NCBI GenBank assembly: GCA_963778815.1
Contig: CAVZVS010000002.1
Coordinates: 344,879-408,878 of the forward strand
Origin: an uncultured Chloroflexia bacterium
Lineage (GTDB): Bacteria; Chloroflexota; Limnocylindria; Limnocylindrales; CSP1-4
Direction of reading: 5' to 3'
DNA: 64,000 nt
Shown here: positions 6,931 through 26,796 of the stretch, piece by piece
Layout of the letters: each line of letters starts with the position of its first letter
How positions within the stretch are numbered: the stretch's first letter is position 1
Made by a program: the position numbers and the translations under genes
Notes under the pieces: model-generated
The model's input: the letters and a program-made list of their open reading frames with translations, nothing else
What the model was told of the DNA's origin: nothing
Database searches by the model: none

Positions 6931-6945
6931 CAGGAGGCCCATGCG

Positions 6946-9348: not shown

Positions 9349-10212
9349 TCCCAGCCGAGTTCGAATACGACCGTCCGGCGACCGTCGCCGAGGCGCTCGC
9401 CATCCTGGCCCGGAATCCAGGGAGCGCCAAGGTCCTGGCCGGTGGCCAGAGCCTGCTCGGGTTGATGCGCCTGCGCCTGGCCCGACCCGAGCGGCTGGTC
9501 GACATCGGCCGGCTCGACGAGCTCAAGGGCATCCGGGCGCTGCCCGACGGCGGGCTGGCCATCGGCGCCCTGGCGACCTATCGCGAGGTCCTCGACTCGG
9601 CCCTGGCGACCTCGCGGGTGCCGCTCCTGGCCATGACCATCGCCGACATCGGCGACGTCCAGGTCCGCAACCGCGGGACCGTCGTCGGTTCGATCGCCCA
9701 CGCCGATCCGGCCTCGGACATGCCGGCGGTGGTCCTCGCCCTCGAGGCGGCGATCGTGGCCCGGTCGAGCAGCGGCGAGCGGATCGTGCCGGCGACCTCG
9801 TTCTTCGAGGGCGCCTTCGTGACCGACCTGGCCGAGGACGAGTTGCTGACCGAGATCCGGATCCCGGCCCAGCCGGCCGGGGTCGGGATGGCCTATCGCC
9901 GGTTCGAACAGCCGGCATCGGGCTACTCGATCGCCGGGGCGGCTGCGGTCGTCGGGCGGACCGGGGGCGTGGTGATCGACGGTCCGGATCGGGGTGACCG
10001 GGGTCGGCGACGTCGCCTACCGGGCGTCGGCCGTCGAGGCTGCCCTGAGTGGCACGAGCGGGGATGCCGGGTCGATCGCAGCCGCCGCGGCCCATGCCGT
10101 CGACGGGGTGACAGTCGGCTCCGATATCCACGCCGACGCCGTGTACCGGGCGGAGATGGCCCGGGTCCACGTCCGGCGGGCGATCGAGGCGGCGCTGGGC
10201 GCCGCCGACTGA
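9345..10212 (+). pseudogene. coxM: CODH/XDH-family FAD-binding medium subunit (CoxM-like) with a frameshift
   Basis: GTG at 9345 overlaps the CoxL stop (GTGA) and follows cAGGAGG. VIPAEFEYDRPATVAEA...AGGQSLL is read up to about 9985. The C-terminus GVGDVAYRASAVEAALSG... is then in ORF 9994..10212. The intact paralog is at 16510. Confidence 0.7.
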
Positions 10213-11392: not shown

Positions 11393-12270
11393 GTGGACGG
11401 CATCGTGGCCAGCTTCCGGGCGGCCGACTACATCTGCGACCGCTCGCTGGGGACGGCCGTCTTCCTGGCCCTGGAACTGGGTCGGCCGCTGCTTCTCGAG
11501 GGCGAGGCCGGCGTCGGCAAGACCGAGCTGGCCAAGACCCTGGCGACGACCTGGGCACCCGCCTGATCCGGCTCCAGTGCTACGAGGGCCTCGACGTCAA
11601 CTCGGCGGTCTACGAGTGGAACTACCCGCGCCAGATGCTCGAGATCCGGCTGCTCGAGGCGGCCGGCAAGGTCGACCGAGCGACGGCCCACGACATCTTC
11701 GGGCCCGAGTTCCTGATCAAGCGGCCGCTCCTACAGGCGCTCGAATCGACCGACGGCAAGGCGCCCGTCCTGCTCATCGACGAGATCGACCGGGCCGACG
11801 AGGAGTTCGAGGCGTACCTGCTCGAGATCCTGTCCGACTTCCAGGTGACCGTGCCCGAGATCGGCACGGTCCGGGCCGAGCAGACGCCGCGGGTGGTGCT
11901 GACCTCGAACCGGACCCGCGAGGTCCACGACGCGCTGAAGCGGCGCTGCCTCTATCACTGGATCGACTACCCGACCTTCCAGCGCGAGTTGGAGATCGTC
12001 CTGACCCGGGTGCCCGAAGCGCCCGACAAGCTGGCCCGCCAGATCGTCGGCTTCGTCCATCGCCTGCGCGAGGCGGACTTGACCAAGGTCCCCGGGGTCG
12101 CCGAGACGATCGACTGGGCGTCGGCCCTCCTGGCCCTCGGAGCGACCGAGCTCCAGCCGGCCCTCATCGACGAATCGCTCGGCGTCGTCCTCAAGTACGA
12201 GGAAGACGTCCGACATGTCCGGGGCGAAGCCGGCCGCCGGATCCTCGACGAGGTCGTCGCCGGCGGCTGA
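11393..12270 (+). pseudogene. coxD: MoxR-family AAA ATPase (CoxD-like) with a frameshift
   Basis: The N-terminus with Walker A, VDGIVASFRAADYICDRSLGTAVFLALELGRPLLLEGEAGVGKTELAKTLA, is in frame 2 (GTG 11393). The remainder, LGTRLIRLQCYEGLD...VLLIDEIDRA...LTSNRT (Walker B, sensor), is in frame 1 (track ORF 11320..12270). The break is at about 11545-11555. The start is uncertain; ATG 11320 is the alternative. Confidence 0.65.
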
Positions 12271-12290: not shown

Positions 12291-13736
12291 GTGTCGCCAT
12301 CACCCGACCCCGGGCATGTCCTGCCGGCGTTGCCCGGTGCTCGGACCGCGACCCTCGTCGATGGGGAGCGGTTCACCGGCAACGCGGTCCGCTTCGCCCG
12401 AGCCCTGCGCCAGGCCGGGCTGACCACGGATCTTGGCGCGGCCATCGACTTCGCCCGGGCGCTCGGGCTGGTCGAGATCGGCGACCGGGAGCAGGTCCGC
12501 TCGGCCGGCTCCGCGCTGTTCGTCCGGCGCCGCGACGACCTCGAGATCTACGACGAGGTCTTCGCTCGCTTCTGGCGGTCCCACCGCCCCAAGCTGACCG
12601 AGGGCGGTCCGGGCGTCGACGCCGTCCCGGTCGACACGGTCCAGTCGGAGGACGAGGAGGCCGGTGGCGAGGTCGAGGCCGAGTCGGGCACCGAGAGCCA
12701 GCTCGCCGAAGCCGAGCGGGACGGCTTCGCCATGCCAGCCGAGGACGACAGCGAGGACGCCGAGGAGGAGATCGACGGCCTGATCATCAGTGAGCAGGCC
12801 TACAGCGCAGGCGCGGTCGACCGGCACCGCCAGTTCGACCGGATGACGGCGGCCGAGTTGCGTGACGCCGAACGGCTGATCGACCTGCTCATCCCGAACC
12901 TCGAGAAGCGCCGGACCCGCCGGAGCGAGCTCCATCGGCACGGTCGGATCGTCGCGCCTCGGGTGATGTTCCGGCGCAGCCTGGCGACCGGTGGCGATGT
13001 CCTCGATTGGGTCTGGCGTCGGCCGGTCCGGCGCCCCCGTGCTCTGGTCGTCATCTGCGACATCTCCGGCTCGATGGAGCGCCACGCCCGGGTCCTCCTC
13101 CGGTTCAGCCAGGCGCTGGCCGCATCGACCGTCCGGACCGAGGCGTTCGTGTTCGGGACGAAGCTCACCCGGGTGACCCGGATGCTCCGCGACCGCGACC
13201 GCGATCGAGGCCTCGACCGGGTCGCCGATACGGTCACCGACTGGTCCGGCGGGACCCGGATCGGCGAGTCGTTCCGCGAGTTCAACCAGGAGTGGGCCCG
13301 CCGGGTCCTGCGCAGCAGCGCGGTCGTGGTCGTCGTGTCGGACGGCTGGGATCGGGGCGACCCGGCCCTCGTCGCACGCGAGACCGCCCGGCTTCAACGG
13401 AGCTGTCATCGGCTCATCTGGCTCAACCCGCTGGCGTCGACGCCGGGTTACCAGCCGCTGGCCGGTGGGATGTCGGCCGCGATGCCCTTCGTCGACGACT
13501 TCGTCCCGGCCGGCACCCTGGCCAGCCTCGAGCGGCTGGGCATCCTCCTCTCGGATGCCCCGACCCGGCGCGAGGCCGCCCGACGTGCCCGTGGGTTCGG
13601 TGGCGAGGGCGCCCGGTCGACCGGGCACGCGCCACGAGTCGAGAGCGTCCGGCCCGACGTCCGCGAAGTCAGTGCGGTTCGGCCGGCGGACGACGGCTCG
13701 GACGGCGCCACGGCGCGGCCCCTCAGTCCGGCGTAG
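12291..13736 (+). CDS. coxE: VWA-domain protein of CO-dehydrogenase maturation (CoxE-like)
   Basis: GTG at 12291 is in the frame of ORF 11577..13736. The N-terminus RFARALRQAGL is present. The MIDAS motif VVICDISGSMERH is intact. Confidence 0.8.
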   Translation: MSPSPDPGHVLPALPGARTATLVDGERFTGNAVRFARALRQAGLTTDLGAAIDFARALGLVEIGDREQVRSAGSALFVRRRDDLEIYDEVFARFWRSHRPKLTEGGPGVDAVPVDTVQSEDEEAGGEVEAESGTESQLAEAERDGFAMPAEDDSEDAEEEIDGLIISEQAYSAGAVDRHRQFDRMTAAELRDAERLIDLLIPNLEKRRTRRSELHRHGRIVAPRVMFRRSLATGGDVLDWVWRRPVRRPRALVVICDISGSMERHARVLLRFSQALAASTVRTEAFVFGTKLTRVTRMLRDRDRDRGLDRVADTVTDWSGGTRIGESFREFNQEWARRVLRSSAVVVVVSDGWDRGDPALVARETARLQRSCHRLIWLNPLASTPGYQPLAGGMSAAMPFVDDFVPAGTLASLERLGILLSDAPTRREAARRARGFGGEGARSTGHAPRVESVRPDVREVSAVRPADDGSDGATARPLSPA

Positions 13737-13759: not shown

Positions 13760-14872
13760 ATGAGAGAGTTGCTGAGGACGCTCGAGGCCTGGCAGGCCGG
13801 TGGCGCGGATGTCGGTCGGGCGGTGGTGGTCCGGACGTTCGGCTCGGCGCCGCGACCCGAGGGCGCCGTCCTGCTGGCGGCCACCGACGGCCGGATCGCC
13901 GGCTCGGTCAGTGGCGGCTGCGTCGAAGGAGCCGCCTACGAGGAGATCGAGCGAGCGCGCCAGGATGGGGTCAGCCGGGTGATCCGCTACGGCATCAGCG
14001 ATGAGCAGGCCTGGGATGTCGGTCTGGCCTGCGGCGGGACGATCGATGTCCTGGTCGAGCCGACCGTCCGCCCGGAGCTGATCGCGGCGGGCGAGGACTC
14101 CGAGCACGGTCGGGCCGTCGTCACCATCCTGCCGATCGACGCCCCGGGGCCCGTCTTCGGACCGCACTCGCCCGGGGCAGGGGAGCCGATGGCAGCGGTC
14201 TTAAGGGTCGCCGACGACGGCAGCCTGGACGGGTCGCTGGGCGATCCGGCGTCCGACGCGGAATTGATCCGGGCCGGCCTGGCGGCGCTCGCCAGCGGGA
14301 CGTCGCGGACCGTGGAGCTGGCCGGCCGTTCGCTCTTCGTCGAGGCGTTCCCCGTCCGTCCCCGGCTGGTGGTCGTCGGCGCGGTCCAGGTCGCCATCCC
14401 CCTGGTCGCCCTAGCCCGCGAGCTCGGCTACGAGACGGTGGTCATCGACGGCCGGGCGGCCTTCGCGACACCGGAGCGCTTCCCGCACGCCGATCGGCTG
14501 ATCGTCGGCTGGCCGGACGAGGTCGCCGACGAGATCGCACTCGGCCCAGCCGACGCGGTCGCCGTCCTGACCCACGATGTGAAATTCGACGAGCCGGCCA
14601 TCGTCGCCGCCCTCCAGCGCGGCTGTCGCTATGTCGGCGCGGTCGGCTCGCGCAAGACCCAGGCCGATCGGCGCGACCGGCTCCTCGCCGCTGGCGTCAC
14701 GGCCGAGCAGCTGGCCGGCCTGCGCGGTCCCATCGGTCTCGATCTCGGTGGACGCGCGCCGGCCGAGACGGCCCTATCGATCATGGCCGAGATCGTGGCC
14801 GACCGACACGGCGGATCGGGTCGTCCGATGTTGGAGCTGGTGGCTCGGAGCGCGAGTGTCGGGGCTGCCTAG
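13760..14872 (+). CDS. coxF: XdhC/CoxI/CoxF-family molybdenum-cofactor insertion chaperone
   Basis: ATG at 13760 (MRELLRTLEAWQAGGADVGRAVVVRTFGSAPRPEGA...GSVSGGCVE) lies in the frame of ORF 13007..14872. The Rossmann-like XdhC_C part is present (LVVVGAVQVAIPLVALAREL). Confidence 0.85.
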   Translation: MRELLRTLEAWQAGGADVGRAVVVRTFGSAPRPEGAVLLAATDGRIAGSVSGGCVEGAAYEEIERARQDGVSRVIRYGISDEQAWDVGLACGGTIDVLVEPTVRPELIAAGEDSEHGRAVVTILPIDAPGPVFGPHSPGAGEPMAAVLRVADDGSLDGSLGDPASDAELIRAGLAALASGTSRTVELAGRSLFVEAFPVRPRLVVVGAVQVAIPLVALARELGYETVVIDGRAAFATPERFPHADRLIVGWPDEVADEIALGPADAVAVLTHDVKFDEPAIVAALQRGCRYVGAVGSRKTQADRRDRLLAAGVTAEQLAGLRGPIGLDLGGRAPAETALSIMAEIVADRHGGSGRPMLELVARSASVGAA

Positions 14873-16289
14873 GGGCAGGTTCGGGGCGATCGTCCTGGCC
14901 GCTGGCCTGGGCAGCCGGTTCGGCGGGGGCAAGGTCCTGGCCGCGCTCGAAGGGCGGCCCATCCTCGATCACGTCCTGAGCGCACTTCGGGTCGCCGGCA
15001 TCGGCCAGACCGTCGTGGTCCTCGGACGGGACGCCGAGCAGGTCGAGACTGCGATCACCTGGGCCGGCGAGCGCCGGACGATCAACCCGAACCCCGAAAC
15101 GGGCCTGTCGAGCTCGCTTCGTCTCGGCCTCGAGGCGATCGAGGACCTCGAGGACGGCGTGGCTTTCGCCGGCGTGTTCGTCGTGCTGGGCGACCAACCG
15201 CTGGTCGATCCGGCGGTGTTCCGGGCGTTGGGGCAGGCGGAGGTCCGCGACGGGATCGGTTTCGTGATCCCGCGCTATCGCTCTGGCGATGGACCCAATC
15301 CCGTCCTCGTGCTCAGCGAAGGTCGGCGCTGGGTGGCCGAGGTGAGCGGCGATCGCGGTCTCGGGCCGATCCTGGCCGCCCACCCGGAGCTCGTCGCCGA
15401 GGTCGAGTTCGGCGGTGGCAACCCGGATGTCGATACCCGGGTCGACCTGCTCGAGCTGGCCTGGGCCGACCGTGTCCGTCGCGACCGGCTCCAGGTCGAT
15501 CGGTTCCGCGAAGTACCCGACGGCGAGGACTTCTATCGACCCGTCACGAGTCTCTTCCGGGCCGATCCGCGGCGGACGGACGAGCCGATCCTCGACGCGC
15601 TCCTCGCCCTGGCCCGACCGGACGACGACTGGCTCGACATCGGTGCAGGCGCCGGGCGCTACGCCCTGCCCCTCGCCCTAAGGGTCCGCCAGGTCGTCGC
15701 CCTTGAGCCGTCCGACGGGATGCGCTCGGCCCTCGAGGAGCTGGCTCGCGAACACGGCATCGCCAACGTCCGGACCATCGCCGAACGCTGGCCCCGGGAG
15801 CCGGAGGAGTCCGGCAGCGGCCCGGCGGCCGACCTCCGGGTCGACGTCGCGATGATCGCCCATCTCGGCTACGACATCGAGGAGATCGGTCCGTTCATCG
15901 ACGCGATGGAGGCGGCCGCCGGCCGGCTGTGCGTCGCGATCCTCATGGAGCGCCAGCCGTCATCGATCGCCGACCCGTTCTGGCCGCCCATTCACGGTGA
16001 GGAGCGGGTCGCATTGCCGGCGTTGCCCGAGTTCCTGGAGCTGCTCGTGGCACGCGAAACGACCCCGAGCGTGCTCCGTTTCCCGCGCCCACCGCGCGCC
16101 ACCGACACCTTCGACGAGCTCCATGGGTTCGTCCGTCGGCAGCTCTGGCTGACCGCCGGTGGGCCTGCCGATCGGCGGCTGGAAGGTCTCGTTCGGGCGG
16201 TCGCCGAGCGGCCCGACGGGCGCTGGTCGCTGCCCCAACCGAGCGTGGACATCGGTCTGGTGAGCTGGTCGCCGACCCACCGGTCGTGA
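14856..16289 (+). CDS. MocA-like molybdenum cofactor cytidylyltransferase fused to a class I SAM-dependent methyltransferase domain
   Basis: GTG at 14856 overlaps the XdhC end by 17 nt. The N-terminal half has FGAIVLAAGLGSRFGGGKVLAALEGRPIL...VLGDQP (MobA-like NTP transferase). The C-terminal half has the SAM motif I WLDIGAGAGRYALPLA...VVALEPSDGM. Confidence 0.7.
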   Translation: MSGLPRGRFGAIVLAAGLGSRFGGGKVLAALEGRPILDHVLSALRVAGIGQTVVVLGRDAEQVETAITWAGERRTINPNPETGLSSSLRLGLEAIEDLEDGVAFAGVFVVLGDQPLVDPAVFRALGQAEVRDGIGFVIPRYRSGDGPNPVLVLSEGRRWVAEVSGDRGLGPILAAHPELVAEVEFGGGNPDVDTRVDLLELAWADRVRRDRLQVDRFREVPDGEDFYRPVTSLFRADPRRTDEPILDALLALARPDDDWLDIGAGAGRYALPLALRVRQVVALEPSDGMRSALEELAREHGIANVRTIAERWPREPEESGSGPAADLRVDVAMIAHLGYDIEEIGPFIDAMEAAAGRLCVAILMERQPSSIADPFWPPIHGEERVALPALPEFLELLVARETTPSVLRFPRPPRATDTFDELHGFVRRQLWLTAGGPADRRLEGLVRAVAERPDGRWSLPQPSVDIGLVSWSPTHRS

Positions 16290-16329
16290 GCCCTCCCGAT
16301 ACATCCGGCCGACCCATGGATACGTATCG

Positions 16330-16358
16330 TTGACGCGTCCACTACGCACGCCTATCCT
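16330..16358 (+). promoter_or_regulatory. sigma-70/SigA-type promoter (TTGACG-17-TATCCT) for the form I cox operon, followed by a ~150-nt leader
   Basis: ttgacgcgtccactacgcacgccTATCCT sits in the only sizeable intergenic gap (16290-16509). coxM then starts at 16510 after GGAGG. Confidence 0.4.
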
Positions 16359-16509
16359 CGGCCTACGACATCCAACGTAGCGTCCGGGTTACCACCGAGT
16401 CGCGATCTCGGTCCGCTCCGGGGCCCCGTCTCGAGTCGTCGACCAGCAGCGTGTTCGCCGCTCCAAGCGGCGAGCGTCAGCGTCCGACTCAGGGCGCGGA
16501 GGAGAACGG

Positions 16510-17385
16510 ATGATCCCTGCTCAGTTCGACTACGTTCGGCCGGCGAGCATGCACGACGCCCTGAGGATCCTGGCCGAGCGCGAGGGCGAGGCCAAAGTGC
16601 TGTCCGGCGGCTACAGCCTGCTGCCGATGATCAAGCTCCGGCTGGCTCAGCCGGCCTTGCTGGTGGACATTCGCGACGTCGACGGGCTCGACGGGATCGT
16701 CGAGACGGACGATGAGTTGCGGATCGGCGGGCGGGCGACCCACCGCCAGATCCTCGAGGACCCGACCGTCCAGGCCGGCTACCCGCTCCTGACCGACGCT
16801 GCCGGCGGCATCGGCGATCCGCAGATCCGCAACTGGGGCACGATCGGTGGGTCGTGCGCCCATGCCGACCCATCGGCGGACTGGCCGGCGGTCCTCCTGG
16901 CGACCCGGGCGACCGTGGTCTGCCGGAGCAGCACCGGCGAACGGTCCATCGCGGCCAAGGACTTCTTCATCGACACCTTCCAGACGGCCATCGAGCCGAC
17001 CGAGCTGCTGACCGAAGTGCGCATCCCACGCTGGCCCAGTGGGACCGGCGGCGCCTATGCCAAGCTCGAGCGGCGAGCGGGCGACTTCTCGACCGTCGGC
17101 GCCGCCGTGATGGTCCAGATCGGGCCGGACGGCCGGATCGCCGATGCCGGGGTCGCCCTGACCGCGGTCTCGGACAGCCCGTTCGCTTCAGCTTCGGCCG
17201 TCGCGGCGCTGGTCGGCGCTGAGCCTTCGGAGACCGCCTACCGCGCGGCCGGAGCGGCCGCCGCAGCCGAGTCGCGACCGGCCAAGGACGGCCACGGGCC
17301 GGTCGACTACAAACGAGCGATGACCGAGGAGATGACGGTCCGGGCGTTGCGCAGCGCGGTCGCCCGTGCGCGCGGACAGCGATAG
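16510..17385 (+). CDS. coxM: form I CO dehydrogenase medium subunit (FAD-binding, CoxM)
   Basis: ATG at 16510 follows GGAGGAG. It begins MIPAQFDYVRPASMHDALRIL and has the FAD-binding PCMH fold motifs GGYSLLPMIKLRL and GTIGGSCAHADP. It is intact at 291 aa. Confidence 0.9.
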   Translation: MIPAQFDYVRPASMHDALRILAEREGEAKVLSGGYSLLPMIKLRLAQPALLVDIRDVDGLDGIVETDDELRIGGRATHRQILEDPTVQAGYPLLTDAAGGIGDPQIRNWGTIGGSCAHADPSADWPAVLLATRATVVCRSSTGERSIAAKDFFIDTFQTAIEPTELLTEVRIPRWPSGTGGAYAKLERRAGDFSTVGAAVMVQIGPDGRIADAGVALTAVSDSPFASASAVAALVGAEPSETAYRAAGAAAAAESRPAKDGHGPVDYKRAMTEEMTVRALRSAVARARGQR

Positions 17386-17394
17386 GAGCGCGTG

Positions 17395-17907
17395 ATGGCC
17401 AGCCACAAGATCGAGCTCAGCGTCAACGGCGAGGCTCGCACGGCGGAAGTCGAGTCGCGCCTCCTCCTGGTCCACCTGCTCCGTGACACCTTCGGTCTGA
17501 CCGGTACCCACGTCGGCTGCGATACCAGCAACTGCGGGGCGTGTACGGTCCTGATCGATGGCGAAAGCGCCAAGTCGTGCACGGTCCTGGCCGTCAGTGC
17601 CGAGGGCCGTGAGGTCAAGACCATCGAGGGGATGGCCGAGGGGGCGACCCTCCACCCGCTCCAGCAGGCGTTCTGGGACCAGCACGGCCTCCAGTGCGGC
17701 TTCTGTACCCCCGGCATGATCATGCAGTCGGCCTGGCTGCTGGAGCACAACCCGGACCCGACCGAGACCGAGATCCGGGCGGGCATCAGCGGCAACCTGT
17801 GCCGCTGCACGGGTTACGTCAACATCGTCAAAGCCATCCAGCAAGCGGCCGGCGAGATGGCCGCTGCCGCCGAGACCCAGACCGGTTCGCCGGTCGCGGC
17901 CGGTTGA
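17395..17907 (+). CDS. coxS: form I CO dehydrogenase small subunit (2Fe-2S, CoxS)
   Basis: It has [18 protein letters not shown] and [10 protein letters not shown]...CRCTGY. AGGAG lies 7 nt upstream of ATG 17395 (track start GTG 17392). Confidence 0.9.
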
Positions 17908-17921: not shown

Positions 17922-20309
17922 ATGACCACAGAAGCGGTGCTCCAGACCACTCCCGAAGTCGGCGGGATGGGCCACTCGGTCAAGCGCAAGGAAGACCCGC
18001 GCTTCATCCGGGGTCAGGGCGAGTACATCGACGACGTCAACCTGCCGGGGCAGCTCTGGCTCGACATCGTCCGGAGTCCCTACGCCCACGCCACGATCAA
18101 GTCGATCGACGCCACCGAGGCGCTCAAGGTCCCAGGCGTCGCCGCCGTCGTCACCGGCAAGGACCTCGAGGGCTACAAGCTCCATTGGATGCCGACCCTG
18201 GCGGGCGACATGCAGATGGTCCTGCCCGTGGACACGGTGATGTACCAGTCGCAGGAGGTCGCGGCGGTCATCGCCACGTCCCGCTACGCCGCCGCCGACG
18301 GGGTCGCCGCGGTCGTCGTCGACTACGAGCCGCTGCCGGTCATCGTCGATCCGTTCAAGGCCCTCGAGCCGGATGCCTTCGTCCTTCGGCCGGACCGCGG
18401 CCCGGACAAGCAGAACAACCACATCTGGCACTGGGAATCGGGTGATCGCGCCGCCGCCGATGCGGCCCTCGCGGCCGCAGACGTGACCGTATCCGAGGAC
18501 ATCTATATCCCACGCATCCACGTCGCCTCGATCGAGACGTGCGGCTGCGTCGCCGACTGGGATCCGGTCCGCCAGCAGCTCACCCTGCACATGACGTCGC
18601 AGGCCCCCCACGCCATCCGGACGGTCCTGGCCCTCGTCGCCGGAGGTGCCGGCCTGCCCATCTACGAGCACAACATCCGGGTCAAGACGCACGACATCGG
18701 CGGTGGCTTCGGAGGCAAGGTGCCGGTCTACCCCGGCTACGTCCTGGCCGTCGCCGCCTCGTTCCTTACCGGCAAGCCGGTCAAGTGGATCGAGGATCGG
18801 TCCGAGAACCTGCAGGCCGATTCGTTCGCCCGGGACTACCACATCCATGCCGAGATGTCGGCGACCAAGGAAGGCAAGATCACCGGTCTCAAGGTCAAGA
18901 CGATCGCCGACCACGGCTACACCGACGCGGCCGCCGATCCGTCCAAGTACCCGGCCGGCCTGTTCAACGTCATCACCGGCTCGTACGACTTCCCGGACGC
19001 GTTCGTCGAGGTCGATGGTGTCTACACGAACAAGCCGCCCGGCGGCGTCGCCTATCGCTGCTCGTTCCGGGTGACCGAGGCGGTCCACGCCATCGAGCGG
19101 ATGGTCGACATCCTGGCCCACGAGATCGGCAAGGATCCTGCTCAGCTCCGGATGGAGAACTTCATCCAGCCCGAGCAGTTCCCCTACAAGACACCGACCG
19201 GCTGGTCGTACGACTCGGGCAACTACCCGGCCGCACTCCAGAAGGCCATGGACATGATCGACTACGCCGGCCTGCGCAAGGAGCAGGCTGAGAAGCGGGC
19301 GAAGGGCGAGCTGATGGGCATCGGCATCAGCAGCTTCACCGAGATCGTCGGCGCCGGACCGTCCCACGACTTCGACATCCTGGGCATCAAGATGTTCGAT
19401 TCGTGCGAGATCCGGGTCCATCCCACGGGCAAGGTGCTGGCCCGGATCGGCGTCCAGTCGCAGGGCCAGGGTCACGAGACGACCTTCGCCCAGATCATCG
19501 CCGAGGAGCTCGGCTTTCCGGTCGCGGACATCAAGATCGAGTACGGCGATACCGACACCGCCCCGTACGGGTTGGGGACCTATGCGTCGCGCTCTACCCC
19601 GGTCGCCGGGGCGGCCACCGCGATGGCCTCACGCAAGATCAAGGACAAGGCCCGCAAGCTGGCGGCCCACTTGCTCGAGGCCAACGAGGACGACCTCGAG
19701 TGGACCAATGGCAAGTTCTCGGTCAAGGGCTCGCCTGAGCAGTCCAAGACGATCCAGGAGCTCGCCTTCGCGGCTTACACCAACCATCCCGAGGGGATGG
19801 AGGCCGGTCTCGAGGCGGTCGACTACTACGACCCACCCAACCTGACCTTCCCGTTCGGCAGCTATATCTGCGTGGTCGACATCGACAAGGGCACCGGTCA
19901 GGTCACCGTCCGGCGCTTCGTGGCGGTCGACGACTGCGGCAACATCATCAACCCGATGATCGTCGACGGCCAGATCCACGGCGGGCTGACGATGGGGTTC
20001 GCTCCGGCCCTGTACGAGGAGATCACCTACGACGAGCTCGGCAACAACCTGGCCGGGACGTTCATGGACTACCTCCTGCCGACCGCGGTCGAGACGCCCG
20101 CCTGGGAGACCGGCAAGACCGTGACCCCGTCACCGCATCATCCGATCGGGGCCAAGGGTGTCGGTGAGTCGGCGACCGTCGGCGCCCCGCCGGCCATCGC
20201 CAATGCCGTCGTCGATGCCCTGTGGCACCTGGGCGTGCGCAACGTCGACATCCCGATGACCCCCCAGAAGATCTGGGCCATCCTGCGCGAGAAGGGGGTG
20301 ACGGCGTAG
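17922..20309 (+). CDS. coxL: form I [MoCu] CO dehydrogenase large subunit (CoxL, AYRCSFR signature)
   Basis: ATG at 17922 (MTTEAVLQTTPEV). It carries the active-site loop GGVAYRCSFRVTE and the Mo-binding GVQSQGQGHETT. It is intact at 795 aa. The track ORF start 17694 is an upstream over-extension that overlaps coxS. Confidence 0.92.
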   Translation: MTTEAVLQTTPEVGGMGHSVKRKEDPRFIRGQGEYIDDVNLPGQLWLDIVRSPYAHATIKSIDATEALKVPGVAAVVTGKDLEGYKLHWMPTLAGDMQMVLPVDTVMYQSQEVAAVIATSRYAAADGVAAVVVDYEPLPVIVDPFKALEPDAFVLRPDRGPDKQNNHIWHWESGDRAAADAALAAADVTVSEDIYIPRIHVASIETCGCVADWDPVRQQLTLHMTSQAPHAIRTVLALVAGGAGLPIYEHNIRVKTHDIGGGFGGKVPVYPGYVLAVAASFLTGKPVKWIEDRSENLQADSFARDYHIHAEMSATKEGKITGLKVKTIADHGYTDAAADPSKYPAGLFNVITGSYDFPDAFVEVDGVYTNKPPGGVAYRCSFRVTEAVHAIERMVDILAHEIGKDPAQLRMENFIQPEQFPYKTPTGWSYDSGNYPAALQKAMDMIDYAGLRKEQAEKRAKGELMGIGISSFTEIVGAGPSHDFDILGIKMFDSCEIRVHPTGKVLARIGVQSQGQGHETTFAQIIAEELGFPVADIKIEYGDTDTAPYGLGTYASRSTPVAGAATAMASRKIKDKARKLAAHLLEANEDDLEWTNGKFSVKGSPEQSKTIQELAFAAYTNHPEGMEAGLEAVDYYDPPNLTFPFGSYICVVDIDKGTGQVTVRRFVAVDDCGNIINPMIVDGQIHGGLTMGFAPALYEEITYDELGNNLAGTFMDYLLPTAVETPAWETGKTVTPSPHHPIGAKGVGESATVGAPPAIANAVVDALWHLGVRNVDIPMTPQKIWAILREKGVTA

Positions 20310-21355
20310 GCGCGAACGGCCAGCTGTCGCTGCTCGAACGAGCGGTCGAGCTCGACCGCTCGGGGCAGCCCTATGCCCTGGCCACCGTCGTCGCCGTCCG
20401 TCGTCCCACCTCGGCTCGACCGGGAGCCCGCGGGCTGATCCATCCCGACGGTTCGATCGAGGGCTTCGTCGGGGGAAGCTGCGCCCGCCCGCTGGTCGTC
20501 CGGGAGGGGCTTCGGGCGCTGGCCGACGGGCAACCCCGCCTCCTTCGGATCAGCAAGGAGTTGTCGTCCGAGAGCCGGCGCGGTGACGGCATCGTCGAGG
20601 AAGTCATGACCTGCCACTCCGGTGGCACCCTGGAGATCTACGTGGAACCGCATCTGCCTGCGCCGGCCCTGTGGATCGCCGGGACGACGCCCATCGCCGC
20701 CGCCCTCGCCGAACTCGGTTCGGGGATGGGCTTCGACGTGACCATGATCGACCCGGTCGCCGACGCCGGTCTCCTGCCCGACGTCGCCCGGGTCGTCGTC
20801 GGGGACGACCTGAGCGTGCTCGACTGGCCGACCGTCGGCCCGTACGTGGTGGTCGCCAGTCAGGGCACCTGGGACGAGGAGGCGGTGGCCTCGGCGCTCC
20901 GCCTCGATGTCGCCTACGTCGGCCTGGTCGCAAGTCCGACGCGGGCAGCAGCCGTCCGGACCTGGCTGCTTGACGAGGGTATCGAGCCGGACCGGGTGTT
21001 CGCCCTGCGCGCCCCGGCCGGGATCGACCTCGGGGCCGAGACGGCCAGCGAGGTGGCCATCTCGATCCTGGCCGAGCTGGTCCAGGTCCGCCGCGGCCGG
21101 GCCGCCTTCGTGGCCGCGCCCGGACCGGCCACCCTCGCCGGATCGACGGCCCCGGCGCAGTCGATCGTCTTCGGCCCGACCGACGATATCGTCCTGCTCG
21201 ACCCGGTCTGCGGGATGACCGTCGATCGCGAGACCGCTCGCCATCTGGCCGAGCACGGTGGGGTCGTCTACGCCTTCTGCTCGATCGCCTGTCGATCGAG
21301 TTTCGTCCGGGAACCGACGGCCTATGTCGGCGCCGGAGCCAAGACGGGCAGCTGA
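20222..21355 (+). CDS. XdhC/CoxI-family Mo-cofactor chaperone with C-terminal YHS (TRASH-like copper-binding) domain
   Basis: It has the XdhC N-terminus LLERAVELDRSGQPYALATVV...GFVGGSCARP and a Rossmann part. The C-terminus has CGMTVDRETARHLAEHGGVVYAFCSIAC (YHS motif). The start is uncertain. The track GTG 20222 overlaps coxL by 88 nt, and no ATG/GTG/TTG exists nearer. CTG at about 20324 would give a canonical XdhC N-terminus. Confidence 0.75.
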   Translation: MAPGRAQRRHPDDPPEDLGHPAREGGDGVGANGQLSLLERAVELDRSGQPYALATVVAVRRPTSARPGARGLIHPDGSIEGFVGGSCARPLVVREGLRALADGQPRLLRISKELSSESRRGDGIVEEVMTCHSGGTLEIYVEPHLPAPALWIAGTTPIAAALAELGSGMGFDVTMIDPVADAGLLPDVARVVVGDDLSVLDWPTVGPYVVVASQGTWDEEAVASALRLDVAYVGLVASPTRAAAVRTWLLDEGIEPDRVFALRAPAGIDLGAETASEVAISILAELVQVRRGRAAFVAAPGPATLAGSTAPAQSIVFGPTDDIVLLDPVCGMTVDRETARHLAEHGGVVYAFCSIACRSSFVREPTAYVGAGAKTGS

Positions 21356-21375: not shown

Positions 21376-21819
21376 ATGCACTTCGAAGGTACCGAGGAGA
21401 TCGCTGCGCCCCAGGACAAGGTCTGGGCGTTCGTGATCGATCCGACCCAGGTCGGTCAGTGCGGCCCCGGGGTCGAGTCGGTCGAGGCCGTCGACGCCAG
21501 CCACTTCAAGGCGAAGGCCAAGGTCGGCATCGGCTTCATCACCGCCAAGTTCAACGCCGATGGCGAGATGATCGTCATCAGCGCGCCCGAGCACGCCGAG
21601 GTCAAGATCCACGGCCAGGCGCCGGGTACCGCCGCGGATGCGGTCGCGACGATCAAGCTGTCAGCGGGCGCCGCGGCAGGGTCGACGACGATGGACTGGT
21701 CGGCCGAGGTGAACATCTCGGGCACCCTCGCCAGCGTCGGGGCGCGGCTCATCGAGGGCACCGCCAACAAGCTCATCGCCCAGACCTTCGCCTGCATGAA
21801 GACCAAGCTCGAGGCCTGA
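21376..21819 (+). CDS. coxG: CoxG (SRPBCC-fold carbon monoxide dehydrogenase subunit G)
   Basis: ATG at 21376 follows GGAGG. It is 147 aa with MHFEGTEEIAAPQDKVWAFVIDP...GTANKLIAQTFACMKTKLE. Confidence 0.85.
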   Translation: MHFEGTEEIAAPQDKVWAFVIDPTQVGQCGPGVESVEAVDASHFKAKAKVGIGFITAKFNADGEMIVISAPEHAEVKIHGQAPGTAADAVATIKLSAGAAAGSTTMDWSAEVNISGTLASVGARLIEGTANKLIAQTFACMKTKLEA

Positions 21820-21842
21820 TCGGGGCGTTCGGGTCAGGCCTC
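21811..21842. terminator. bidirectional hairpin between convergent coxG and cyclase-ATPase regulator 2
   Basis: A perfect 9-bp inverted repeat gaggcctga-(14 nt)-tcaggcctc embeds both stop codons (TGA 21817-19, TCA 21834-36). Confidence 0.4.
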
Positions 21843-24800
21843 GGTACGGTCTCCCGGTCCAGCCGCCTCGATCGGGATCGCGAGCGGCGGCGCCTCTCGC
21901 GGCGTTGCGCGATCTTCGGCCCAGCGGGCGAGACCGATGTCGAGCCGCTCGAGCAGCGGCGGCGATCCGAGCTTGGTGAAGATCGCGCGGGCCTCGTCCG
22001 CCGCGGCGCGAGCGCCCGGGTCATCGGGGCCGATCAACGATGCATACTCCAGCTGGCAGCGGCCGAGCTCGACCGGCAGATCGAGCCGTCGGAACGCATC
22101 GCCGGCCGTTCGATACCGAGCGATGGCATCCTCGCGGCGTCCCTCGAGGGCGTCCAGGCCGGCCTCGACGACCATCCGCATCGCCTCCGTCCACGCGCCC
22201 CGCTCGGGCGATTCGCGACTGAGCTCGACGGCGACCCGCGTCCGCTTCGGATCTTCCATCCAGATGGCGTAGTGCGCTGCGGTCGCACACGCCCAGACGA
22301 ATGGCACGAGCCTGGCGGCCGTCATCGCCTCGTCGTACGCCTCCGCGAGCTGACCGCCGAGGGCGAGGATCTCGGCGCGCACGTAGTGACGAGAGGCGAC
22401 GAAGTCCGGTCGGGACGAGTCCGGAGCGTAGCGGTCCGCGGCGGTCAGCTCGCGGGCGGCGGTGGGGAGGTCGCCCCGGTAGGCCGCGAGCGACGCCCGC
22501 GTCTCGTGGATCCCCTGGAGGTCCTGCGGCTGGACATCGCCGGCCTCTACCTCGTCGGCAAGCTCCAACAGCCAGTCCCAGAGGCCGAGCGCGAACCCGC
22601 CGCCGTAGCACTGCCAGGTGCTCCACCTGAACTGATCACGGGCACCAAGCCTCCTGGCGAGCTCGCGGACGTCGACGACAGCCGCCAGCGAGGCCCTCGG
22701 GTCGTCCAGATAGAGCAGATTGGCGTAGTTCGAGCGGGCTCGGAACTCGGTGCTCGTCAACCGATGAGCGACGGCCAGCTCGATGGCCCCGCCCAGGATC
22801 GCGATCCCCTCATGCCGGCGCCCGATCGTATCGAGCGCGGCGGCCTTGGTCACGAGCGCTTCGGCGATGATCGGGATCGCCTCGAGCCTCTCGGCGGCGA
22901 TCAAGGCCCGGTCGGCGACATCGAGCGCACGTGGGTCGTTGTTCACCATCAGCGCCCGCGCCGACTCGGCGACCACCCGGACGACCTCCGGTCGATCCTC
23001 GAGACCGGCACACTCGGCCAGCGACTCCTCGAGGAGATCGTTCGCCTCGGTCGACATGCCGATCTCGAACATGGGTTGGGTGAGGAGGACGACGGCTCGA
23101 GCCGCGCCGATCCGATCACCGGTCGCCCGGTACCAGTCGACCGCCTGTCGTCCGTACCGTTCGGAGACGTCGCTCTTGCCAGCGTGGTGGGCTGACGTCG
23201 CCGCGGCTTCCCAGAGGCTCGCTCGCTCGGCGGGTTCGATCGTGACCGTCAGGGCCTGCTCGAGGTAGTCGAGGGCCAGGTCGTACGACCCGAGTCCAGC
23301 CGCCCGCTCGGCGGCCCCACGCAGGGCGACCCGGGCCTGGGCAGCCAGCGCATCTGCTTCAGGACCATCGGGCGTCGCTCGATAGGCATCGAGGTAGTGG
23401 CTGGCAAGGACGCCCGCCAGCTCGTCGCCCCCGAGTGTCTCGAAGTAGCGAGCCGCGGCCAGGTGGCGCGTCCTTCGGTCGCGTTTGGCCAGCGTTTCGT
23501 AGGCGACCTCCCGGATGGGCCCCTGGACGAACGCATACTGTCCCCGCTCCGGGGACCGCGGTTGCTCGTCGAGCGACAGGATCTCCCGGCGGACGAGGGT
23601 CCGGAGCCTCGCGACGAGGTCGTCCACGGATCGCCCACTGATCGCGACGAGCGCATCCATCGTGAAGCTCAGGCCCAGCACGGACGCGTCCTGGAGGACC
23701 GCCCGCTCGTCGGCCGGCAGCGCGTCGAGCCTGGCGCCGATCAGGCCTCGGAGGGATTCGGGGATGGCCAGCTCACGAAGATCGCCGTCCACCCGATAGC
23801 CATCGTCCTCGCGCAGGAGCCGACCCTCGTCGATGAGCATCCGAACGGTCTCGACCGCGAACAGGGGAACCCCCGCCGCCCGAGCGACGATCCGGCGACC
23901 GGCACCCACCGGCAGGCCGGGGACGACACCGTCGAGCAGACGCATCATCGCCTCATCGGACAGGGGATCGAGGTGGAGGGCGGTGAAGTTGCGCTGGCCG
24001 GCACCCCAGGTCGGCCGCCGCTCGAGGAGCTCCGGTCGGGCCAGGGTGATGATCAGGATCTGTTGGTTCCGGCTCCATTCGAGGATCAATTCGATGAACT
24101 CGACGAGGCCGCCGTCGGCCCATTGCAGGTCCTCGAACACGAGGACGACGAGACCTCGCTCGGCGATCCGCTCGAGGAGCCCGCGGGCCGCCGCGAACGC
24201 CTCATCCTGGCGGCCCGCTCCTGGGTGGTCGTAGCCCAGGAGGGCCAGCAGCCACGGGGCCATCGCCCGCCGTTCGGCCTCGTCGGGCACGTATTCCTCG
24301 AGCGTGGCGGCGAGTCGTGTCCGGGCCGTCTCGGCATCGTCGCTCTCGGCGATCCCGGCCCGTCCCCGGACCATCTCGGCCAGCGCCCAGAAGGCGATCC
24401 CTTCGCCGTAGGCCGGTGACCGACCCTGGTGCCAGTAGACGTCGTCGACGATGCCGTCGATGTACTTCTCGAGCTCCCAGGCGAGCCGGCTCTTGCCGAT
24501 CCCGGCGATCCCGGTCACCGACACGAGTCGCGCCCGCCGCTCGTCGGCGACCGCGTGGAGGATGTCCTTGAGCAGGCGCAGCTCGGCGTCGCGTCCGACG
24601 AACGGCGGCTCGATCCGCTCGGAGCGCCCGCGCCCGCCGACCATGGCCAGGGTATGCAGCGCGCGCCAGGCCGGCACGGGGGCGGTCCGGCCCCGCAGGT
24701 CCTGCTCGCCGAGTGGCTCGGCGGCGATCGCGGCGGCTGTCGCGCGGTGGGTCTGCTCATCGAGCAGGACGCTCCCGCCGGGCGCGATGCCCTGCAACCG

Positions 24801-25397
24801 GGAGGCGGTGTTGACCAGATCCCCGGTGACCAGGCCCTGGTCGGTCGCGCCGACGGTCACCGCCGCCTCACCGGTCATCACCGCGGCGCGTGCTTGCAGG
24901 GTGGGTCCGTCCGGGGCGACCCGCAGGGCACCTACCGCACTGAGCAGCTCGAGCGCCGCCCGGACCGCGCGCTCGGCGTCATCCTCGTGCGAGGTCGGCG
25001 CACCCCAGACGGCCATGACCGCGTCGCCGATGAACTTCTCGAGGGTCCCGCCGTAGCGCTCGACGACGGCCCGACAGGTCGCGAAGTAGCGATCCTGGAG
25101 CTCGCGCAGTTCCTCGGCATCGCGTCCCTCGGCCAGGGTCGTGAACCCGACCAGGTCCGCGAACAGGACCGACACGATCCGGCGCTCGGTGACCGGCTGG
25201 GCGCCGTCCGTCCCTGACGCAGCGACCTCGCCGGCCAGGGTCGTCCCGCACTCGCCGCAGAACTTGGCCGCGGGCGGGTTGCTGGCACCGCATGATGGGC
25301 AGCCCGACACAAGGCGGGCCCCGCACTCATGGCAGAACTTGCGCCCGGTCTCGTTCTCGGTGGCGCAGCTCGGGCAACGCACCGCTGACCCCTCCAC
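21834..25397 (-). CDS. large signalling protein: double zinc ribbon + class III adenylate/guanylate cyclase + AAA/NB-ARC-like ATPase + TPR (paralog 2)
   Basis: ORF 21834..25397(-), GTG start. It is collinear with the 2770..6318 protein: CPSCATENETGRKFCHECG...CPSCGA, then [15 protein letters not shown]...[11 protein letters not shown], then [11 protein letters not shown]. It is intact at 1187 aa. Confidence 0.85.
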   Translation of the reverse strand: MEGSAVRCPSCATENETGRKFCHECGARLVSGCPSCGASNPPAAKFCGECGTTLAGEVAASGTDGAQPVTERRIVSVLFADLVGFTTLAEGRDAEELRELQDRYFATCRAVVERYGGTLEKFIGDAVMAVWGAPTSHEDDAERAVRAALELLSAVGALRVAPDGPTLQARAAVMTGEAAVTVGATDQGLVTGDLVNTASRLQGIAPGGSVLLDEQTHRATAAAIAAEPLGEQDLRGRTAPVPAWRALHTLAMVGGRGRSERIEPPFVGRDAELRLLKDILHAVADERRARLVSVTGIAGIGKSRLAWELEKYIDGIVDDVYWHQGRSPAYGEGIAFWALAEMVRGRAGIAESDDAETARTRLAATLEEYVPDEAERRAMAPWLLALLGYDHPGAGRQDEAFAAARGLLERIAERGLVVLVFEDLQWADGGLVEFIELILEWSRNQQILIITLARPELLERRPTWGAGQRNFTALHLDPLSDEAMMRLLDGVVPGLPVGAGRRIVARAAGVPLFAVETVRMLIDEGRLLREDDGYRVDGDLRELAIPESLRGLIGARLDALPADERAVLQDASVLGLSFTMDALVAISGRSVDDLVARLRTLVRREILSLDEQPRSPERGQYAFVQGPIREVAYETLAKRDRRTRHLAAARYFETLGGDELAGVLASHYLDAYRATPDGPEADALAAQARVALRGAAERAAGLGSYDLALDYLEQALTVTIEPAERASLWEAAATSAHHAGKSDVSERYGRQAVDWYRATGDRIGAARAVVLLTQPMFEIGMSTEANDLLEESLAECAGLEDRPEVVRVVAESARALMVNNDPRALDVADRALIAAERLEAIPIIAEALVTKAAALDTIGRRHEGIAILGGAIELAVAHRLTSTEFRARSNYANLLYLDDPRASLAAVVDVRELARRLGARDQFRWSTWQCYGGGFALGLWDWLLELADEVEAGDVQPQDLQGIHETRASLAAYRGDLPTAARELTAADRYAPDSSRPDFVASRHYVRAEILALGGQLAEAYDEAMTAARLVPFVWACATAAHYAIWMEDPKRTRVAVELSRESPERGAWTEAMRMVVEAGLDALEGRREDAIARYRTAGDAFRRLDLPVELGRCQLEYASLIGPDDPGARAAADEARAIFTKLGSPPLLERLDIGLARWAEDRATPREAPPLAIPIEAAGPGDRTEA

Positions 25398-26784: not shown

Positions 26785-26796
26785 GGTTCGGTGACC

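Follow-up and report, generated by a model that had tools for sequence, protein, structure and literature searches.

The route by which copper reaches the Mo-S-Cu centre is the least understood maturation step of aerobic CO dehydrogenase, the enzyme with which bacteria of soil and water consume atmospheric CO. What is currently assumed about its maturation comes from one alphaproteobacterium and combines mutant phenotypes with sequence motifs proposed for its CoxF protein. The window, a stretch of 64,000 nucleotides from an uncultured Chloroflexia bacterium (contig CAVZVS010000002.1), carries a form I cox cluster in which the gene following coxL encodes an XdhC-family protein with an additional C-terminal domain of a metal-binding type. 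This locus raises the question of whether that domain, termed YHS, serves the insertion of copper.

Organization of the cox cluster

All features described here lie on the + strand. The cluster contains a coxD-like gene for a MoxR AAA+ ATPase (11396..12270), recognized by Pfam and NCBIfam profiles and split by a frameshift near 11545-11554; a tblastn search with Oligotropha CoxD matches it in two frames. It is followed by a gene for a coxE-like VWA protein (12291..13736; Pfam VWA_CoxE, 195 bits), 86.5% identical over its full length to the coxE of L002, and by a second XdhC paralogue (13760..14872), which was identified with Pfam, has the generic GLACGG motif, lacks a YHS domain and matches 2we7 over its full length with an E-value of 1e-71. 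This paralogue is probably a chaperone that handles the molybdenum cofactor (Moco). The adjacent segment encodes a MocA-like molybdenum cofactor cytidylyltransferase domain (14886..15386; Pfam NTP_transf_3), with a score for NCBIfam TIGR03310 below its cut-off. The structural genes are coxM for the FAD-binding medium subunit (16510..17385; Pfam FAD_binding_5 plus CO_deh_flav_C), coxS for the 2x[2Fe-2S] small subunit (17392..17907; Pfam Fer2_2 and Fer2) and coxL for the large subunit of the Mo-Cu enzyme (17922..20309). The VAYRCSFR active-site loop of CoxL and its score of 1217.9 bits against the NCBIfam equivalog TIGR02416 (cut-off 991) identify form I, and the gene studied here, CoxF-YHS, lies immediately downstream of it, as an earlier note on this DNA had stated. 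Behind CoxF-YHS lies coxG (21376..21819; Pfam COXG, 121 bits), which is preceded by a strong GGAGGA Shine-Dalgarno sequence.

Domain architecture of the CoxF-YHS protein

In its longest form the CoxF-YHS reading frame extends from a GTG codon over 20222..21355 (377 codons). The most probable coding region is 20324..21355, which encodes 343 amino acids plus the stop and begins at a CTG codon orthologous to the GTG of a 96%-identical orthologue. The N-terminal XdhC_CoxI domain (20357..20551; residues 46-110 in the 377-residue numbering) scored 67.2 bits in Pfam against a cut-off of 24.3 and contains invariant columns of the alignment, including the invariant GGSCA motif with Cys53 (nt 20471-20485). 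The Rossmann-like XdhC_C domain (20669..21079; residues 150-286 in the same numbering) scored 90.2 bits against a cut-off of 29.7 and matches the folds of 2we7/2we8 and 3on5. Between the two lies MTCHSGG (20606..20626), a clade-specific motif with Cys97 and His98 that was delimited from the alignments and from a published motif proposal (PMC4240915). With both defining domains (PF02625 and PF13478) above threshold and a fold match to 2we8 at an E-value of 6.5e-18, the protein belongs to the XdhC family.

The core is followed by an Ala/Pro/Gly-rich linker (21107..21181) that is predicted to be disordered and falls in gapped alignment columns of variable length among the orthologues, and then by the YHS/TRASH-type domain (21200..21334; residues 327-371 in the 377-residue numbering). 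The latter scored 35.3 bits against a cut-off of 30.3 for the Pfam YHS profile (PF04945; E-value 1.2e-8), with a match that spans profile positions 3-46 of 47; matches to TRASH_HVO_1752_C and zf-FCS were weak and under their cut-offs, and a Pfam profile search of the protein gave no match to the HMA domain (PF00403). The proposed fusion of an XdhC core to a C-terminal YHS domain was thus borne out by three Pfam domains above their gathering thresholds, including the YHS score that had been set beforehand as a check. In the AlphaFold model the pLDDT is about 90 in the core, below 50 in the linker (residues 262-286) and 84-91 in the YHS segment. The model therefore shows a predicted folded YHS domain tethered by a disordered linker of about 25 residues.

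The YHS segment carries the motif CGMTVDRETARHLAEHGGVVYAFCSIAC at nt 21209-21292, with the spacing D-x2-C-x22-C-x3-C. It satisfies the ligand pattern described for YHS/TRASH domains, (C/D)-x2-C-x19-22-C-x3-C (PMC4626032), as D293-P-V-C296-x22-C319-x3-C323, so that Asp293, Cys296, Cys319 and Cys323 (343-residue numbering) are the candidate ligands. All four were invariant in an alignment of 19 diverse sequences, together with P294, M298, V300, F318 and F327.

Relationship to CoxF

To place the protein within the XdhC family, we compared it by BLASTP with Oligotropha CoxF, with CoxI and with the other XdhC protein of the window. CoxF-YHS and Oligotropha CoxF are each other's best match (38.6% identity over 264 amino acids; E-values 1e-43 to 1e-52; 165 and 140 bits in the two directions), whereas identity to CoxI is 26% (E-value 1e-16, 69 bits) and identity to the upstream XdhC paralogue of the window only 30% (76 bits). 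The cut-offs of the NCBIfam equivalogs for canonical xanthine dehydrogenase XdhC and the aldehyde oxidoreductase maturation factor were not reached, with 38.8 against 161.6 bits for TIGR02964 and 105.2 against 350 bits for NF045664, and the protein is therefore not filed as canonical XdhC. Judged by these sequence comparisons, the gene product is a CoxF-type member of the family and not a generic XdhC.

Like CoxF of Oligotropha (Afipia) carboxidovorans OM5, which is encoded in the coxMSLDEFG cluster of pHCG3, the window protein has both XdhC domains and Cys53, and its gene, which belongs to a form I (AYRCSFR) coxMSL cluster, is accompanied by coxD, coxE and coxG. The putative copper-binding motif of Oligotropha CoxF, M107CPSHGTM (PMC4240915), aligns with the invariant MTCHSGG of the window protein; in the segment VMTCHSGGTLE, Cys and Ser of the M-x-C-x-S region are kept, and the positions of Met and His are shifted. 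The two proteins also differ: Oligotropha CoxF, with 280 amino acids, ends right after the Rossmann domain and has no YHS or other metal domain, whereas the window protein adds the linker of about 25 and a YHS domain of about 45 residues. The RHGQRQS "phytase" motif is a feature of the Oligotropha protein and not of the window protein, and coxF follows coxE in Oligotropha but coxL in the window.

With the Moco chaperones of the XdhC/PaoD/CoxI type (2we7/2we8, 3on5) CoxF-YHS shares the two-domain fold and a conserved cysteine. The near-universal cysteine of XdhC proteins is Cys82 of R. capsulatus XdhC, located before the VEP strand (PMC2997495). In CoxF-YHS, C97 within MTCHSGGTLEIYVEP is invariant in the 19 sequences and, in a match judged by eye, corresponds to the cysteine of GLACGG..VEP in the paralogue, that is, to the universal cysteine of the XdhC CGG motif. 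The window protein is nevertheless distant from this type (E-value 7e-17 to 2we7, against 1e-71 for the paralogue), has C-H-S-G-G in place of C-G-G, carries the extra YHS domain and is linked to a copper-containing enzyme only.

Distribution of the fusion and its linkage to form I coxL

The fusion was present in all 120 best homologues. Of the 127 nearest cluster representatives at 50% identity, 108 have the YHS domain, and it also occurs in 76 of 80 species genomes, which span more than ten phyla, including Chloroflexota, Acidobacteriota, Bacteroidota, Myxococcota, Actinomycetota, Deinococcota, Gemmatimonadota, Methylomirabilota and Thermoplasmata. Replicons of Thermomicrobium roseum, Deinococcus, Paraburkholderia, Caballeronia and Natronorubrum carry it as well. 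Throughout these counts it is a single reading frame and no artefact of a missing stop codon, and in the orthologues the XdhC and YHS parts stay fused rather than occurring as separate genes. The fusion thus withstood all three refutations named in the earlier note. The survey for fusions beside an AYRCSFR-type coxL that the earlier note had called for gave a form I loop near the CoxF-YHS gene at every one of the 35 fully flanked loci, defined as those with 9 kb or more on either side. The gene orders seen were coxL-F, coxL-D-E-F and F-D-E-coxL; in 16 surveyed genomes a YHS-type CoxF occupied the Oligotropha-like place in coxL-D-E-F.

We also used a sample that was not selected on CoxF, namely 120 metagenome contigs chosen only by the AYRCSFR pattern. 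Among 50 complete CoxF-like reading frames on these contigs, 36 (~72%) carried a YHS domain, four had Cys-rich CCH or CCGG tails and eight were tail-less, like the Oligotropha protein. These sequence data show that the fusion is real and old and is the commonest form of CoxF in nature. It was not described in the literature that we searched.

In two CoxF relatives the YHS position is taken by what their sequences identify as an HMA domain, a Cu(I) domain with an MxCxxC motif: one (P0172) scored 40.9 bits and has the motif GMSCAHC, and the other (L082), from a locus with the order coxL-D-E-F, scored 22.1 bits and has GMSCSHC. The HMA fold differs from the YHS fold of the window protein; by analogy with HMA metallochaperones of the CopZ/Atx1 type, the shared role would be that of a small protein module that carries Cu(I) and supplies it to a complex metal centre. 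An analogous Cu(I)-carrier role may connect CoxF-YHS with NosL, which has been described as derived from TRASH-like treble clefs (PMC4999995).

Proposed role of the tethered YHS domain

Our preferred interpretation, which we consider reasonably likely, is that a CoxF-type factor with a tethered YHS domain installs Cu(I) in form I CO dehydrogenase. In Oligotropha, the CO dehydrogenase of mutants in coxE or coxF is devoid of copper, and Moco is already in place before CoxF acts (PMC4240915); the Oligotropha model rests on mutants with a mutual dependence of CoxE and CoxF and on motif spotting (PMC4240915). CoxF would act late, together with CoxD and CoxE, on folded, Moco-loaded and sulfurated CoxL, and would complete the [CuSMoO2] centre. 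In this scheme the tethered YHS domain would capture cytosolic copper and hand it to a core Cys/His site formed by GGSC53A and MTC97H98SGG, and the core would then dock on CoxL and deliver the metal. The suggestion of the earlier note that the fusion is a dedicated copper-delivery module thus gains support from the reciprocal best match to CoxF, the complete form I linkage and the replacement by HMA, while copper binding and transfer are steps that we infer.

The YHS domain in the M. phlei adenylyl cyclase provides a precedent for copper, since it has a D/C/C/C ligand set and confers copper-specific activation (PMC4626032). Like the YHS domains of this cyclase and of Cu-transporting P1B-ATPases, that of CoxF belongs to the same Pfam family and shows the Asp-x2-Cys ... 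Cys-x3-Cys pattern, and like that of the cyclase it is C-terminal. However, the cyclase domain acts as a sensor and is joined by a linker of 8-11 residues, whereas the CoxF domain sits on a cofactor-maturation chaperone behind a linker of 25 or more residues.

The main rival explanation is that YHS has a structural role as a zinc-binding treble clef, for docking or interaction (for example with CoxL, CoxE or CoxD) or for dimerization, and that copper, if any, is bound only at the core Cys/His site. By sequence, the only solved chains that match the YHS part are those of phenol hydroxylase PhN, 2inp and 3u52 (E-value 1.5e-3). Phenol hydroxylase is not a copper enzyme, and its PhN site in these structures presumably holds zinc. 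The weak zf-FCS matches, to a protein-interaction finger, point in the same direction. YHS/TRASH domains are classed within the treble-clef zinc-finger fold group (PMC4999995), the crystallized L24e TRASH domain bound Cd through its cysteines, and in the structure of toluene-4-monooxygenase the YHS domain is without metal and has no copper role (PMC4626032), so the metal specificity of a YHS domain cannot be read from its sequence. In addition, Oligotropha-type CoxF works without a YHS-like domain, which is therefore not essential to the CoxF mechanism. On the other hand, relatives fill the C-terminal position with HMA MxCxxC domains, which are dedicated carriers of Cu(I) or soft metals, or with short Cys-rich CCH tails; the first ligand is Asp rather than Cys, as in the copper-responsive cyclase; and the long tether predicted by the model would suit a shuttling function more than docking by a module that stays in place. 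On balance, we regard a purely structural zinc role as unlikely.

Somewhat less likely still is an ordinary XdhC-type chaperone function, in which the protein would hold or protect sulfurated MCD-Moco or insert it into CoxL. The YHS domain would then have a side role, for instance by gating Moco insertion in response to copper or a different metal, or by binding another metal. Such a role would agree with the presence of both XdhC domains, the fold matches to 2we7 and 3on5, the retained universal cysteine and the sensor function in the M. phlei cyclase. It is opposed by the paralogue in the same cluster, which is far closer to canonical XdhC and can cover Moco handling, by the reciprocal best match to CoxF and not to CoxI or XdhC, by the order of events in Oligotropha and by the exclusive tie of this clade to the copper-containing form I enzyme.

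Translation start and assembly quality

The sole in-frame ATG, GTG or TTG upstream of Met95 is GTG 20222, and a start there would overlap the end of coxL (stop codon ending at 20309) by 88 nt; in-frame CTG codons occur at 20324 and 20330. The choice between an overlapping GTG and a CTG start, pointed out earlier, therefore holds for the window. The possible N-terminal extension (20222..20323) is not conserved, because L002, L005 and L010 do not keep its frame open ahead of the near start, and it is probably not a translated part of CoxF, as far as these comparisons indicate. Orthologues begin at MTPPVSLLERAVEL or VSLLERAVEL, and one of them (L001) has GTG at the exact position of the CTG in the window. 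The probable start of translation is at or beside 20324, 15 nt past the coxL stop and coupled to coxL termination. CTG 20324 would then be a weak start of the near-cognate kind, or else it is the GTG of the closest orthologue, altered by a base error or as a variant. We found no Shine-Dalgarno sequence before either candidate start (GTG 20222 or CTG 20324).

Seven frameshifts within about 10 kb of the assembly (in a form II coxL paralogue, coxD and the 15441-16487 gene) make a base error at the CTG possible. The alignments suggest that the dilemma is better put as a GTG that reads CTG at the start position shared with the orthologue, within an assembly prone to errors, with natural CTG translation by termination-reinitiation after coxL as a secondary reading. 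A near canonical start is also absent from three orthologues (L006, L008 and L025), so the condition recurs. In the public annotation, the identical sequence is called as a protein of only 249 amino acids (P0056) that starts at an internal Met, and consequently the XdhC_CoxI domain is missing from it.

That the gene is an artefact or dead, through a lost stop or misassembly joining two genes or through a start loss leading to a pseudogene, is very improbable: the absent canonical start, the frameshifts and the short gene call would fit, but a continuous fusion occurs in finished genomes and recurs across hundreds of independent assemblies, the reading frame is 96% identical to its orthologue P0001 across all 343 residues with no indel at the junction, and orthologues share the start condition. 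We therefore rejected an artefactual fusion and regard a pseudogene through start loss as improbable. Given the frameshift in coxD and the missing canonical start of the CoxF gene, it is not certain that the system functions in this genome.

Implications for CO dehydrogenase maturation

For the family as a whole, we see an even chance that CoxF is a dedicated copper insertase that in most lineages has a built-in copper module (YHS in about three quarters of environmental clusters, HMA or Cys-rich CCH tails in others), the tail-less Oligotropha type being the exception. Most CoxF proteins bear a separable domain of a metal-binding type, and some lineages have a classical Cu(I) domain instead; this comparison independently supports CoxF as the donor of copper. 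An XdhC-YHS gene beside an AYRCSFR coxL can also serve as an annotation marker for complete form I maturation sets. Gene callers truncate or mis-start this gene where it is translationally coupled to coxL. The YHS part of CoxF is a small soluble domain, in which copper binding and transfer are directly testable. If the proposed role is true, YHS would rank as a true chaperone domain for Cu(I), and one soluble protein could suffice to reconstitute the last step in the assembly of the [CuSMoO2] centre in vitro.

Domain architecture and structure model

The open reading frame at 20222..21355 on the forward strand, CoxF-YHS, is translated without interruption. The earlier note had read it as an XdhC protein fused to a C-terminal YHS domain and proposed an HMM search; every domain exceeded its Pfam gathering cut-off, with 67 bits for XdhC_CoxI (residues 46-110), 90 bits for XdhC_C (residues 150-286) and 35.3 bits, over a cut-off of 30.3, for YHS (residues 327-371), all numbered from GTG 20222. 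The TRASH and zf-FCS models of Pfam matched below threshold only. The Cys motif quoted in that note is present in the C-terminal segment, and its spacing within the YHS domain is D-x2-C-x22-C-x3-C.

The AlphaFold model, built from 12 input sequences, has a mean pLDDT of 82.9, with the XdhC core near 90, residues 262-286 (numbered from CTG 20324) below 50, and the YHS domain, which consists of two short strands and a helix, at 84-91. The linker is rich in Ala, Pro and Gly, and its length differs among orthologues. The confident YHS domain, the low-pLDDT linker and the variable linker length together indicate that YHS folds on its own and is joined to the core by a flexible tether. A Foldseek search with the full model returned XdhC-core and Rossmann matches only and none to the YHS part. 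By sequence, the only solved chains matching the YHS part were those of phenol hydroxylase PhN (E 1.5e-3). Phenol hydroxylase has a zinc site.

Operon context

CoxF-YHS is preceded by coxM (16510-17385), coxS (17392-17907) and coxL (17922-20309) and is followed by coxG (21376-21819). The coxL product carries VAYRCSFR and scores 1218 bits with the NCBIfam equivalog of the aerobic CODH large subunit, above the cut-off of 991, which confirms the proposed position immediately downstream of a form I coxL. The GC content of the window is 70%, and the closest homologues of CoxF-YHS are labelled Chloroflexota or Candidatus Limnocylindrales. Placed divergently beside coxG, a minus-strand gene (21834-25397) encodes 1187 residues with a double zinc ribbon, a class III cyclase and an AAA_16 domain; because it occupies the same position beside coxG in L002, one of the two closest related loci, its product may be a conserved cox operon regulator. 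At 25506-28047, also on the minus strand, lies a gene pair resembling the DUF1501/DUF1800 type, one member of which has a twin-arginine signal (MPMQLIDRRRFLQLG...); the first gene is apparently split (ORFs 25506-26723 and 26347-26784).

Recurrence of the fusion and linkage to form I CODH

An artefactual fusion, such as one created by a missing stop, is excluded by the recurrence of the continuous form in every collection searched. Among the best 120 homologues from a collection of 5.8 billion proteins, PF02625, PF13478 and PF04945 were precomputed together in all except P0056, a shortened gene call of the window's own sequence. When the representatives of 50%-identity clusters were searched exhaustively, 477 proteins matched at E ≤ 1e-30, and YHS was found in 108 of 127 near-full-length representatives drawn from the best 150; one representative, P0140, carries a tandem pair of YHS domains. 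Using tblastn against PLSDB, we located the complete fusion on replicons of Thermomicrobium roseum (order coxM-coxS-coxL-XdhC/YHS; YHS 58 bits), Deinococcus, Paraburkholderia, Caballeronia and the haloarchaeon Natronorubrum. The alphaproteobacterial matches (Afipia, Bradyrhizobium, Rhizobium, Roseivivax and others) end at 74% coverage and are without YHS. In a survey of one-genome-per-species contigs, in which 80 loci from more than 10 phyla were kept, YHS was present in 76; one locus (L082) has HMA and three are frameshifted or truncated. Residues D293, P294, C296, M298, V300, F318, C319, C323 and F327, in the 343-residue numbering from CTG 20324, are invariant in 19 diverse sequences. Of the 127 representatives scanned, 5 contain a MobA-like NTP-transferase (MocA-type) domain: P0198 has it at the C-terminus and lacks YHS, and P0137, P0143, P0155 and P0196 are extended at the N-terminus by about 220-250 residues.

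The survey for such fusions beside AYRCSFR-type coxL, also proposed earlier, showed that the gene is strictly tied to the form I enzyme, which contains Cu. A form I loop was present at all 35 loci having at least 9 kb on each side (33 AYRCSFR, 1 SYRCSFR and 1 AYACSFR), and every one of the 21 loci lacking the loop is cut by a contig end. The gene is adjacent to coxL, as in the window, at 31 loci; the Oligotropha-type order coxL...D,E...F was seen at 16 and the order F...D,E...coxL at 11.

Because the species loci had been picked by similarity to the query, a second sample was picked on coxL alone. It consisted of 120 metagenome contigs, among the matches listed, that fit a back-translated AYRCSFR(V/I)TE pattern. 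Among the matches listed, these contigs held 50 complete CoxF-like ORFs: 36 with YHS at the end, 2 with a YHS that is degenerate or frameshifted, 4 with a short Cys-rich tail and 8, nearest to Oligotropha CoxF, with no tail. With the caveats that the pattern requires CGN arginine codons, that tails were sorted by regular expression rather than by HMM and that the counts are among the matches listed, most CoxF proteins are of the YHS form, and the studied Oligotropha form is a minority.

The YHS appendage is interchanged with other C-terminal ends. HMA replaces it in P0172, one of the 127 cluster representatives (GMSCAHC, 40.9 bits), and in the Rhodothermales gene L082:10001-11011 (GMSCSHC, 22.1 bits), where the order is coxL-coxD-coxE-coxF. 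Four metagenome contigs with form I coxL (L088, L116, L120 and L150) lack YHS and have the Cys-rich ends …GSCCHG, …GHCCHD, …PGCCH and …SCCGGS. These short tails may represent a third, putative type of metal-binding appendage.

Orthology to CoxF

The window encodes two XdhC paralogues. The second, at 13760-14872, has no YHS domain and follows coxD-like AAA+ and coxE-like VWA genes. It matches 2we7, the structure of the M. smegmatis Rv0376c homologue, over its full length (E 1e-71), and CoxF-YHS reaches E 7e-17 only; against the NCBIfam XdhC equivalogs, CoxF-YHS scores far under the cut-offs. We compared CoxF-YHS with both members of the XdhC family encoded on Oligotropha carboxidovorans pHCG3. 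It and Oligotropha CoxF are mutual best hits (38.6% identity over 264 residues, E 1e-43 to 1e-52), and orthology to CoxI was ruled out (26% identity, E 1e-16). By the tests available, the sequence places CoxF-YHS in the CoxF subfamily of the XdhC family and not among the canonical XdhC equivalogs. An earlier review had placed CoxF in one group with the XdhC homologues found in other CODH operons, and CoxI with PaoD (PMC2997495).

Oligotropha coxE and coxF mutants produce folded, Moco-containing CODH without Cu; CoxF has been implicated in copper insertion, and M107CPSHGTM has been proposed as its Cu-binding motif (PMC4240915). In our alignments, this segment lines up with MTCHSGG of CoxF-YHS (nucleotides 20606-20626), which shows no variation within the CoxF-YHS clade.

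Translation start and assembly quality

As previously noted, there is no canonical start near the conserved N-terminus. The sole canonical in-frame start between the upstream stop and Met95 is GTG 20222, which overlaps coxL by 88 nt, and the alternative is CTG 20324. In the closest orthologue, L001 (96% identical), the junction is base-for-base equal to that of the window, except for a GTG in place of the CTG at 20324. The next orthologue, L002 (91% identical), has an ATG 12 nt further upstream, and its frame is shut before the coxL-internal GTG. An ATG lies 6-9 nt upstream of the orthologous start position in L005, L009, L010 and L013, and L007 and L012 have a GTG there. L006, L008 and L025 resemble the window in that ATG, GTG and TTG are all absent near the conserved N-terminus, which leaves them only the GTG formed within CTG-TGG, two conserved codons of coxL. 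The TGA stop of coxL is overlapped by a CTG (CTGA) in both L006 and L008. The upstream in-frame GTG inside coxL is kept in 5/5 orthologues without a near start versus 6/9 near-start loci with the frame open that far; these counts are too small to mean anything, since open frames are common at 70% GC.

A clear Shine-Dalgarno sequence precedes coxM, coxS, coxL and coxG, and inspection of the junction revealed none for either candidate start of CoxF-YHS. This fits translation coupled to termination of coxL, whose stop precedes the CTG by 15 nt. We lean towards translation from at or next to 20324, through either a GTG miscalled as CTG or near-cognate reinitiation. Initiation at GTG 20222 is rather unlikely, and other explanations, including a non-functional allele, are improbable. 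Gene callers treat this start badly: P0056 begins at Met95 and loses the N-terminal domain, and several orthologues (P0065, P0073 and P0078) were given extensions of 30-35 residues that overlap coxL.

Several other genes of the window are broken. A second Mo hydroxylase operon at 6664-10000 has the order S-L-M (coxS-like 6664-6921, coxL-like 6961-9333, coxM-like ~9786-9953). Its coxL-like gene, with the form II loop AYRGAGR at 8046, falls into four frame segments with three frameshifts, through either decay to a pseudogene or an indel error in the assembly. The coxD gene (MoxR AAA+) is split at ~11550 into 11396-11545 and 11554-12255, with the Walker-A part in a different frame from the remainder. 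The gene at 15441-16487, a homologue of a 363-residue protein upstream of coxM in L002 with no Pfam family, is in four frame segments, and these frameshifts may have produced the "methyltransferase" half of ORF 14631-16289 as an artefact. The splitting of the form II coxL, coxD and 15441-16487 genes indicates that the assembly is error-prone or decaying. The coxM and coxS calls of L002 are truncated, and both assemblies look indel-rich.

A possible role of the YHS domain in copper delivery

CoxF-YHS is orthologous to CoxF and bears a conserved YHS domain on a tether; the candidate ligand set of this domain is identical to that of the YHS domain that renders the M. phlei cyclase copper-responsive (PMC4626032). 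We propose that the YHS domain would bind copper and hand it to a core site formed by Cys53 and Cys97-His98, from which the core, aided by CoxD and CoxE, would insert Cu(I) at the sulfurated Mo site in CoxL. In the chief alternative, YHS would be a structural zinc finger that serves docking. YHS/TRASH belongs to the treble-clef fold group (PMC4999995); Cd is the metal bound by L24e, and the YHS domain of toluene monooxygenase holds none (PMC4626032). The swap for HMA, Asp as the first ligand and the long tether favor a putative carrier. That CoxF-YHS is an ordinary Moco chaperone is a weakened alternative because a more canonical XdhC paralogue is already in the same cluster and the orthology to CoxF speaks otherwise.

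The domain combination of CoxF-YHS is already present in databases, where the RefSeq label is "XdhC family protein", and no curated NCBIfam model fits CoxF-YHS. Full-text searches found no paper on XdhC with YHS, on "YHS domain" with "carbon monoxide dehydrogenase", or connecting CoxF to YHS or TRASH; a Parageobacillus preprint reports a "CoxF" directly after coxL and a second one, with no comment on their domains. CoxF-YHS is not surprising in principle, but it offers a concrete, widely distributed lead on a step in the assembly of the Mo-Cu centre.
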